A stretch of 38,099 nucleotides of DNA from Escherichia coli (GCF_003334335.1 NZ_QOWQ01000042.1); one strand, 5' to 3'. Counted from the stretch's first letter, positions 15,959 through 17,241 are shown. A program made the numbers and translations. Notes: generated from the letters alone by a model not told the origin.

Positions 15959-16672
15959 ATGACCACGCCTTCAGTTTTGCCGCAAAAATTATGGCGTCCG
16001 CTTGCAGAGATTAAAAACTTCGTTGAAAAAATGCCTGACGGCGTTCGCCTTACTGAGGTTACTAAAAAAGTTAAGACATTTGCCGAACTGTCAGGAAAGG
16101 AGAGAAACCAGCTCATCGATTTTATCGATAAACGGGAAAGCATCATTGTATTTAAGGTCAGAAAAGAAGGTTCTGGTAACGGAGTAACCTTTTTACGCCA
16201 CAAAAAATATGGATATCCCAAGCGGGAAGGAAACGTCACAATCATTAAGGACCTTCAATCAAAATTATGTACCAGATGCGGGCAGACAAAATCAGTCAAT
16301 GATTTTTATTCAGATGCCAGCAAGCGTGACGGGAGAGCCATTTATTGCAAGAAGTGCGAATCTGCAATGAAACGCTCACGCAGAGAATGCAACAAATTAA
16401 TTCTGCAACAACAGGAACCTGAAGTGAATAACCTCAAAGCAGTTTCACCTTCACCAGAAATACTCAGAAAACAGGCTGAAGAATTGCTGAAAGCCGCCGA
16501 AATTGCGGAGAAAAAACGCCAGGAAGATGATGAATTCAACAAAAAACTTGCGCCCTTAAAACTTGAAATTCTTCAGGCCGCCGGAAAAATGCAGCTTAAA
16601 CTGGACGAATTCATCGACTGTATGGATGAAATGAATAAAGCAGTTCAGAAGCTTAAAGAGCTGACCGCCTGA
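15959..16672 (+). CDS. hypothetical protein with central C-x2-C...C-x2-C zinc ribbon and C-terminal coiled coil
   Basis: 237 aa; GAGGTG RBS; CTRCGQ...CKKCE; ~40% GC. No family recognised. Confidence 0.5.
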   Translation: MTTPSVLPQKLWRPLAEIKNFVEKMPDGVRLTEVTKKVKTFAELSGKERNQLIDFIDKRESIIVFKVRKEGSGNGVTFLRHKKYGYPKREGNVTIIKDLQSKLCTRCGQTKSVNDFYSDASKRDGRAIYCKKCESAMKRSRRECNKLILQQQEPEVNNLKAVSPSPEILRKQAEELLKAAEIAEKKRQEDDEFNKKLAPLKLEILQAAGKMQLKLDEFIDCMDEMNKAVQKLKELTA

Positions 16673-16703
16673 TATTAATAAATTGCAACTACCGGAGTTA
16701 ACT

Positions 16704-17063
16704 ATGAACGAAACAGAACTGAAGCACATTATCGCCCTGCTTCTGGAAGATGCCAAACAGGTTTATCGACTTAGCCCAAATTCCGCAACGCTGACACGCA
16801 TCCAGATGGCAGAAAAAGCACTGAAACAGGATAATGAAAACAGCGCATCTGAAGTTGATGCTAATGGTGAAAATGAAGTAATAGAAATAAACAGCAATAT
16901 CAGCGACAGTTGCGTCGCTTACAGCCACCAAATAATTCGTGTAAGCGCAAGAATAATGGAATTGATGGCAAGTGAGCTTGAAAAGAACAACATCAAGCCC
17001 ACTGATTGTTGTTTAAGAACCGTAATGAACGTTATTTATTACTCGATGTTCCGAAGTCGCTAA
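16704..17063 (+). CDS. hypothetical protein (119 aa)
   Basis: GGAG RBS; AT-rich; no family recognised. Confidence 0.45.
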   Translation: MNETELKHIIALLLEDAKQVYRLSPNSATLTRIQMAEKALKQDNENSASEVDANGENEVIEINSNISDSCVAYSHQIIRVSARIMELMASELEKNNIKPTDCCLRTVMNVIYYSMFRSR

Positions 17064-17241
17064 CAGCGTCGAGTTTTTCATCAAAAAATGATTCAAATAC
17101 ATCGTAAAATACGGCAATAGCACCGCCCTTATCTACCGCGGCAGGAACTGCCTTTTGAGGTATATCTTTCTCCCTGAATTGTGTGTTGTAGGTATCGACA
17201 GCCAGCCGCATCAGAAACATCACTTTTTCTTCTTGTGTCAT
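17032..17241 (-). CDS. hypothetical protein (69 aa), antisense to the pL operon
   Basis: AAGGAG RBS on the minus strand; overlaps the 3' end of the preceding plus-strand gene by 32 nt. Confidence 0.4.
   Translation of the reverse strand: MTQEEKVMFLMRLAVDTYNTQFREKDIPQKAVPAAVDKGGAIAVFYDVFESFFDEKLDAVSDFGTSSNK

Follow-up and report, generated by a model that had tools for sequence, protein, structure and literature searches.

Lambdoid phages, Shiga-toxin phages included, express first of all the DNA that runs from the immunity region to kil, a recognised site of genes that decide the outcome of infection. In phage lambda, the part between N and kil carries ral, and the PL operon also holds sieB, which lies on the strand opposite to PL and codes for a larger membrane-associated protein. 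Another element of lambda, the OOP RNA, converges on the 3' end of cII with an overlap of a few tens of nucleotides.

The locus described here belongs to a 38,099-nt stretch of Escherichia coli DNA (GCF_003334335.1 NZ_QOWQ01000042.1), referred to as the window, which is a lambdoid prophage adjoining chromosomal genes. The plus strand runs in the direction of PL, and the elements follow one another in the order cI, BstA-like gene, PL, N, genes A, B and C, structured leader, DicF-like RNA with its terminator, and kil. On the 3' side of kil lie a 128-aa ORF and then recE, gam, bet, exo and int. The features on which the analysis draws are the following:

13568-14281: cI
14313-15074, plus strand: BstA-like gene, 253 aa, directly after cI
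about 15295: PL
15572-15955, plus strand: N antiterminator gene, 127 aa, of the 933W/H-19B type (phrog_271, E 3e-39; annotated in PhiR5_2)
15959-16672, plus strand: gene A, ATG to stop, 237 aa
15980-16228, plus strand: winged-helix domain of gene A, residues ~8-90
16253-16408, plus strand: zinc ribbon of gene A (CxxC...CxxC), residues ~99-150, placed by its cysteine pairs
16436-16669, plus strand: C-terminal helical domain of gene A, residues ~160-237 (phrog_2565, E 4e-19)
16704-17063, plus strand: gene B, 119 aa, ATG at 16704
17241-17032, minus strand: gene C, 69 aa, ATG at 17241 and stop at 17032
17032-17063: overlap of the 3' ends of genes B and C, 32 nt, from the ORF coordinates
17256-17251, minus strand: Shine-Dalgarno sequence of gene C, AAGGAG, nine bases 5' of the ATG
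17262-17466, plus strand: structured non-coding stretch, defined by alignment with K-12 and by fold z-scores
17467-17520, plus strand: DicF-like RNA and terminator hairpin, a sub-threshold match to Rfam RF00039 with a 13-bp stem followed by UUUU

Like Ral of lambda and Lar of Rac, these three genes are small early-left accessory genes situated between N and kil. Gene A differs from Ral and Lar in its 237 aa and in its winged helix and helical C-terminal domain. With SieB, gene C shares only its position (minus strand, between gene B and kil, opposing PL), since its product has 69 aa, is soluble and acidic, and shows no sequence match to SieB. The likeness to OOP and cII consists in a converging transcript that would pass over the 3' end of an early gene with a short overlap, with the difference that the converging transcript here encodes a conserved protein. 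As for the dicBF operon of the K-12 Qin prophage, the leader, the DicF-like RNA, the terminator and the cell-division inhibitor of the window align with ydfC-dicF-dicB, whereas K-12 is devoid of genes A, B and C.

The initial annotation, made from the sequence alone, had reported three ORFs of 237, 119 and 69 aa after N, with about 40% GC and none of them recognised. All three are present, with a GC content of 41.7% for gene A, 41.1% for gene B and 41.4% for gene C, the figure for the whole window being 49.2%. The ATG of gene A lies 3 nt past the stop codon of N and is preceded by GAGGTGA, a position from which its translation may be coupled to that of N, and a gap of 31 nt separates genes A and B. 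The strong Shine-Dalgarno sequence attributed to gene C is likewise found, and its AGGAG core is kept in the E. coli-type loci. This gene had also been described as an overlapping antisense ORF. It does overlap the last 32 nt of gene B, but it is not antisense along its whole length, the two genes being convergent and sharing only their 3' ends.

A minus-strand ATG ORF of at least 69 codons appeared in 814 of 2000 shuffles of positions 15959-17700 (41%), so the length of gene C is by itself within chance, and the case for this gene rests on its conservation. Its frame stays open in homologues at 39-59% identity, with pS values of 0.50-0.84 against pN values of 0.24-0.37 and a dN/dS of 0.2-0.45, and over its first 17 codons the Escherichia and Edwardsiella phages differ almost only at third positions. 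Purifying selection acts on all three genes. On the evidence of their sequences, A, B and C are genuine, conserved, non-core accessory genes of the variable N-to-kil stretch.

Each of the three products belongs to a PHROG family of unknown function: phrog_2539 for gene A (E 8e-130), phrog_2982 for gene B (E 2e-75) and phrog_2605 for gene C (E 7e-45, its sole PHROG match). Searches against NCBIfam and PADLOC gave no significant match for any of them, the only PADLOC hit being an insignificant one of gene B to JetB (E 0.012). Pfam returned nothing significant for gene A or for a homologue 58% identical to it, and precomputed Pfam domains were absent from the homologues of genes B and C. Among PDB sequences, no hit fell below E 0.2 with gene A alone or with the profiles of A and B, and a Foldseek comparison with viral models retrieved uncharacterised proteins only. 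Homology to housekeeping phage proteins, which would have spoken against the anti-defence or exclusion role initially proposed, was not found in any of these searches. The literature searched contains no mention of the three PHROG families, their proteins, the O104:H4 locus tags, PhiR5_2 or mEp506, and genes A, B and C go unmentioned in the publications found about lambdoid early-left operons or about EHEC phages.

Escherichia phage PhiR5_2 has 100% identity with the window over positions 15500-17700, as has the chromosome of E. coli G1/2 over positions 15956-17470. Of 5426 complete E. coli genomes, 173 contain DNA similar to the stretch that holds the three genes, and in 45 of these the match covers at least 80% of it. 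A related sequence is also found in the chromosome of E. coli O104:H4 2011C-3493, where RefSeq describes all three products as hypothetical proteins. Similarity to phages of the 933W type stops exactly at the stop codon of N, and both 933W and mEp506 carry the same N, yet unrelated genes come after it. This combination identifies gene A as a mobile module.

The product of gene A is a basic protein, with a pI of 9.5 overall and of about 10 for its N-terminal domain. This domain has the winged-helix fold, and it scores equally well against protein-binding winged helices. A zinc ribbon and a coiled coil had been noticed initially; the protein has CxxC pairs at residues 104-107 and 130-133 and a C-terminal helix spanning residues 166-236. 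The ribbon matches the N-terminal zinc modules of phage HNH/endonuclease VII proteins (phrog_1035, 2340, 2255 and 2633), as well as HNH genes of actinophages. Only the zinc-ribbon part aligns, and Pfam detects no HNH/endonuclease VII catalytic domain, so that gene A has the CxxC...CxxC ribbon in common with those enzymes and not their catalytic domain. A match to the 'Lar-like' family phrog_5558 covers residues 99-161, that is, the ribbon alone, and this element is missing from gene A homologues of ~198 and ~172 aa. The Pfam families Ral (PF11058) and Lar_restr_allev (PF14354) are absent from gene A even at E values of up to 10. Gene A also falls outside the sequence families of the MarR, PadR and ArsR winged-helix factors, in which its C-terminal domain has no counterpart.

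The most conserved part of the family is this C-terminal domain, which in 25 aligned homologues from Enterobacterales has an invariant PE.LR..AE.L..AA motif and a nearly invariant proline 199. An exhaustive profile search collected 104 representative relatives, some of which hold two or three tandem winged helices before the same C-terminal domain, while others hold double zinc ribbons or fusions to AP2 or AlpA helix-turn-helix modules. The domain also stands alone in proteins of ~80 aa, such as P0117 and P0122. All of its recurring fusion partners are nucleic-acid-binding modules. Given these partners and the pI of about 10 of the winged-helix domain, gene A probably encodes a DNA-binding protein, a putative assignment. 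As a separate observation, the gene for P0117 is located just 3' of the repressor gene in a P22-like early-left operon.

The genetic context of the family, which spans Enterobacterales, is also characteristic. Among homologues that are at least 41% identical, 10 of 12 distinct viral loci have an N-type gene whose end lies 3-63 nt on the 5' side, and in prophages of Kluyvera, Enterobacter and Citrobacter the homologue comes right after N genes of different families. In a distant subfamily of ~170 aa, the gene instead begins 2-29 nt past an antirepressor-type gene, at least three families of such genes being represented, or it overlaps the end of a gene for a Dam-type methyltransferase. One locus shows a Ral fragment immediately 5' of gene A. 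Judged by these arrangements, gene A is a module regularly set right behind an early regulator. In three loci (L021 7672-8577, L022 6633-7538 and L068 3107-4117), distant gene A relatives, which are of a 172-aa Salmonella type or a 482-aa triple-winged-helix type, are found a few genes away from an AcrVA2-like gene, the AcrVA2-like match being weak in L068; a Cas1-like gene is also nearby in L021.

Gene B encodes an acidic protein (pI 5.2). It begins with a helical hairpin, continues into an acidic linker that is disordered, and has near its C-terminus, at residues ~75-117, a conserved helix-loop-helix in which KPT is invariant. The confidence of its model is low overall (pLDDT 66), being good only at residues 80-110. 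A ribbon-helix-helix was considered for the C-terminus and dropped as unsupported: AlphaFold gives a continuous helix from residue 68 to 94 and no strand, in a monomer model whose low confidence makes this a weak test, and the gene B profile found no protein of that fold among PDB sequences. The product of gene C is also acidic (pI 4.6) and has no transmembrane segment, its highest hydropathy over 19 residues being 1.12.

The conserved overlapping B/C pair is the most unusual feature of the stretch. It was followed in 17 loci of six sequence types, drawn from lambdoid and Qin-like prophages of Escherichia, from metagenomic phages and from Edwardsiella phage EPP-1. All of these loci, down to 39% identity, show gene C converging with a partner, the two genes overlapping by 23-33 nt, and the final ~40 residues of the partner always carry the same motif with the invariant KPT. 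The partner ranges from 64 to 201 aa through variation of its N-terminal part, which is absent in the 64-aa form. In several phages, no other gene separates the partner from the repressor and PL. In the Qin-like prophages, a 201-aa partner and gene C are inserted between ydfC and the dicF leader, a site that is empty in K-12. E. coli FORC_043 has kept B and C and retains only a 61-aa remnant of gene A, which, together with the Qin-like prophages, indicates that the B/C cassette is independent of gene A. The remnant itself (L014 2955-3140) corresponds to the C-terminal domain of gene A alone and is annotated as a gene, lying ahead of B/C.

The pair is thus a convergent, overlapping arrangement that phages of Escherichia and Edwardsiella alike have maintained. 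As deposited, the genomes of the Shigella phages 75/02 Stx and POCJ13 lack the 5' half of gene C through a deletion of ~290 nt, while genes A and B are retained. Gene B is therefore not strictly dependent on gene C, which, from these genomes, looks dispensable. The constant linkage could also stem from the shared DNA and common descent of the two genes and not from an interaction. With respect to Edwardsiella phage EPP-1, it was noted as well that about 1 kb between its gene C homologue and rdgC (L004 2950-4000) has no annotated gene and gives no Rfam match; this GC-rich DNA resembles the DicF leader of E. coli in patches.

Between PL and the DicF-like hairpin, the scan of the plus strand found no convincing intrinsic terminator, and the only terminator-like site is a weak 5-bp stem within N (15874-15886). 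N, gene A and gene B would accordingly be transcribed ahead of any requirement for antitermination. As regards gene C, four divergent lineages share a promoter-like element with an extended -10, TGGTATCTT, that ends 32-33 nt before the gene and has TTCACC or TTACCA upstream. In the window and in the other E. coli types, the same position is occupied by the degenerate TGGAGAACT. The promoter search detected no sigma-70 site for gene C on the minus strand of the window. Gene C may thus be poorly expressed in this phage.

The DNA upstream of gene C is the complement of the structured leader at 17262-17466, whose fold z-scores are -3.8 on the plus strand and -4.6 on the minus strand. The same sequence lies between ydfC and dicF in Qin of K-12, and no Rfam family matches it. 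Many E. coli prophages without genes B and C have it as well. At 17467-17516 follows the DicF-like RNA, which reaches 29.5 bits (E 0.0027) against RF00039, below the gathering threshold of 48, and its terminator hairpin occupies positions 17483-17520. In the alignment with dicF of K-12, the terminator stem and its flanks agree and the 5' half differs, which means that the targets of the two RNAs may differ. According to PMC10448788, RNase III and RNase E excise DicF from a long transcript. A minus-strand ORF of 83 codons (17489-17238), which has an ATGA overlap with the start of gene C, was rejected as a gene because it begins within the DicF-like terminator hairpin and its sequence does not look protein-like. 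The leader of kil (17518-17712, plus strand) shows a match to the Rfam sRNA family STnc100 that is also sub-threshold (28.3 bits against 47), and distant phages, L066 among them, have kept a block of this leader, GTGAATGCGGCTATGCGCACGCGG, on the 5' side of kil or dicB.

The best-supported account of this locus is an anatomical one. According to it, genes A, B and C would form two separately mobile modules in the earliest part of the PL operon, one with a putative nucleic-acid-binding gene A and the other with B and C as an oppositely transcribed, functionally tied pair, a joint account that we favour tentatively, at somewhat short of even confidence. The basic product of gene A would bind nucleic acid through its winged helix or helices, aided in some relatives by a zinc ribbon, AP2 or AlpA, and the conserved C-terminal helical domain may dimerise the protein or contact a partner. 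Its action would most likely fall within the first minutes after infection or induction, whether the protein is a regulator bound to DNA or RNA or a factor that interferes with the host. Gene B would be transcribed from PL and gene C head-on against it. The constant overlap of the 3' ends and the constant company of gene C and the C-terminal domain of B make opposed expression likely, with B presumably produced in lytic growth and C while PL is repressed. Transcriptional interference or antisense pairing could couple the two genes, and their proteins probably either act upon one another or have a target in common.

Three other readings have been weighed against this account, none of which has positive evidence. 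The initial annotation had proposed anti-defence or exclusion functions; the accessory nature and variable position of the genes have been upheld, while for those functions PADLOC gave no significant match and the Lar-like match is confined to the ribbon. Four features had escaped that annotation: the N-terminal winged helix of gene A, the modularity of its family, the existence of B and C as a conserved unit distinct from A, and the DicF-like RNA and terminator at which the stretch ends. That one or more of the genes counter host defences, by restriction alleviation or otherwise, and protect incoming DNA through early expression from PL seems unlikely. The hints in that direction are indirect: the location where lambda has ral, the Ral fragment directly before gene A in one locus, the small acidic products of genes B and C, the AcrVA2-like genes a few genes away from two distant relatives of gene A, the Dam-type methyltransferase gene directly ahead of two distant relatives, and an immediate-early timing that would be consistent. 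Nevertheless, the sole named anti-restriction match, phrog_5558, corresponds to a ribbon that many homologues lack, Pfam finds neither Ral nor Lar in gene A, the basic character of this protein argues against a DNA mimic, and gene C, transcribed against PL, is a poor fit for an early anti-defence gene. This last feature, which recalls sieB, is what would be expected if gene C were an exclusion factor expressed in the lysogen, a positional analogue of sieB of lambda and P22, with gene B as its immediate-early antidote. The strict co-inheritance of gene C with the C-terminal domain of B, the place that B takes immediately behind the repressor and PL in several phages, and the promoter-like element shared by divergent lineages point the same way, as does the half-deletion of gene C in two deposited Stx phage genomes, which suggests that it is dispensable. 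However, a protein of 69 aa with no transmembrane segment and no similarity to SieB, the lack of a PADLOC match, the degenerate promoter-like element of the window and the BstA-like abortive-infection gene already present beside cI make such an analogy quite improbable. A fuller version, to which we attach a similarly low probability, would have C excluding or sensing phages that enter a lysogen and B neutralising it through its C-terminal domain, with gene A independently acting as a new N-coupled DNA-binding interference factor; the overlapping 3' ends would then lock the pair together and provide antisense control.

It is also conceivable, albeit doubtful, that the genes serve the development of the phage itself, with A regulating early transcription or the choice between lysis and lysogeny, and B/C tuning the DicF/Kil cell-division module. 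Gene A is tightly coupled to regulators (N for the close homologues, antirepressors for the distant ones), its fusion partners are all DNA-binding modules, and no cIII homologue was seen in the early-left operon of the window, so that this regulatory role looks vacant. In the E. coli loci, B/C is always directly before the DicF leader and kil or dicB, a Kil gene is on the 3' side in L066 as well, and an antisense transcript from the gene C side could influence the processing of DicF by RNase III and RNase E (PMC10448788). On the other hand, 933W and mEp506 have the same N without gene A, the DicF leader of K-12 Qin is found without B or C, and EPP-1 possesses B and C with no DicF detectable by Rfam. 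Two conserved and unstudied gene sets, the gene A family and the B/C pair, have been defined in this stretch. The deposited record of PhiR5_2 names E. coli K-12 MG1655 as the host of this phage, which makes deletion and expression work practical, and such work might uncover an early regulator or an exclusion/antidote pair that is new.

Two neighbours of the modules complete the description of the region. The BstA-like gene, annotated as hypothetical in PhiR5_2, sits where lambda has rexAB, and its product matches the BstA abortive-infection family in PHROGs (phrog_6287, E 1.8e-82) and, across its C-terminal half, in PADLOC (E 2.5e-20), with an N-terminus of the KilA-N type. The 128-aa ORF after kil (18003-18389, plus strand; phrog_2016, function unknown) holds a C-terminal CxxC...C cluster with a weak match to zinc-binding proteins of the YnfU type (E 0.044), and it is kept in all the related prophages seen.
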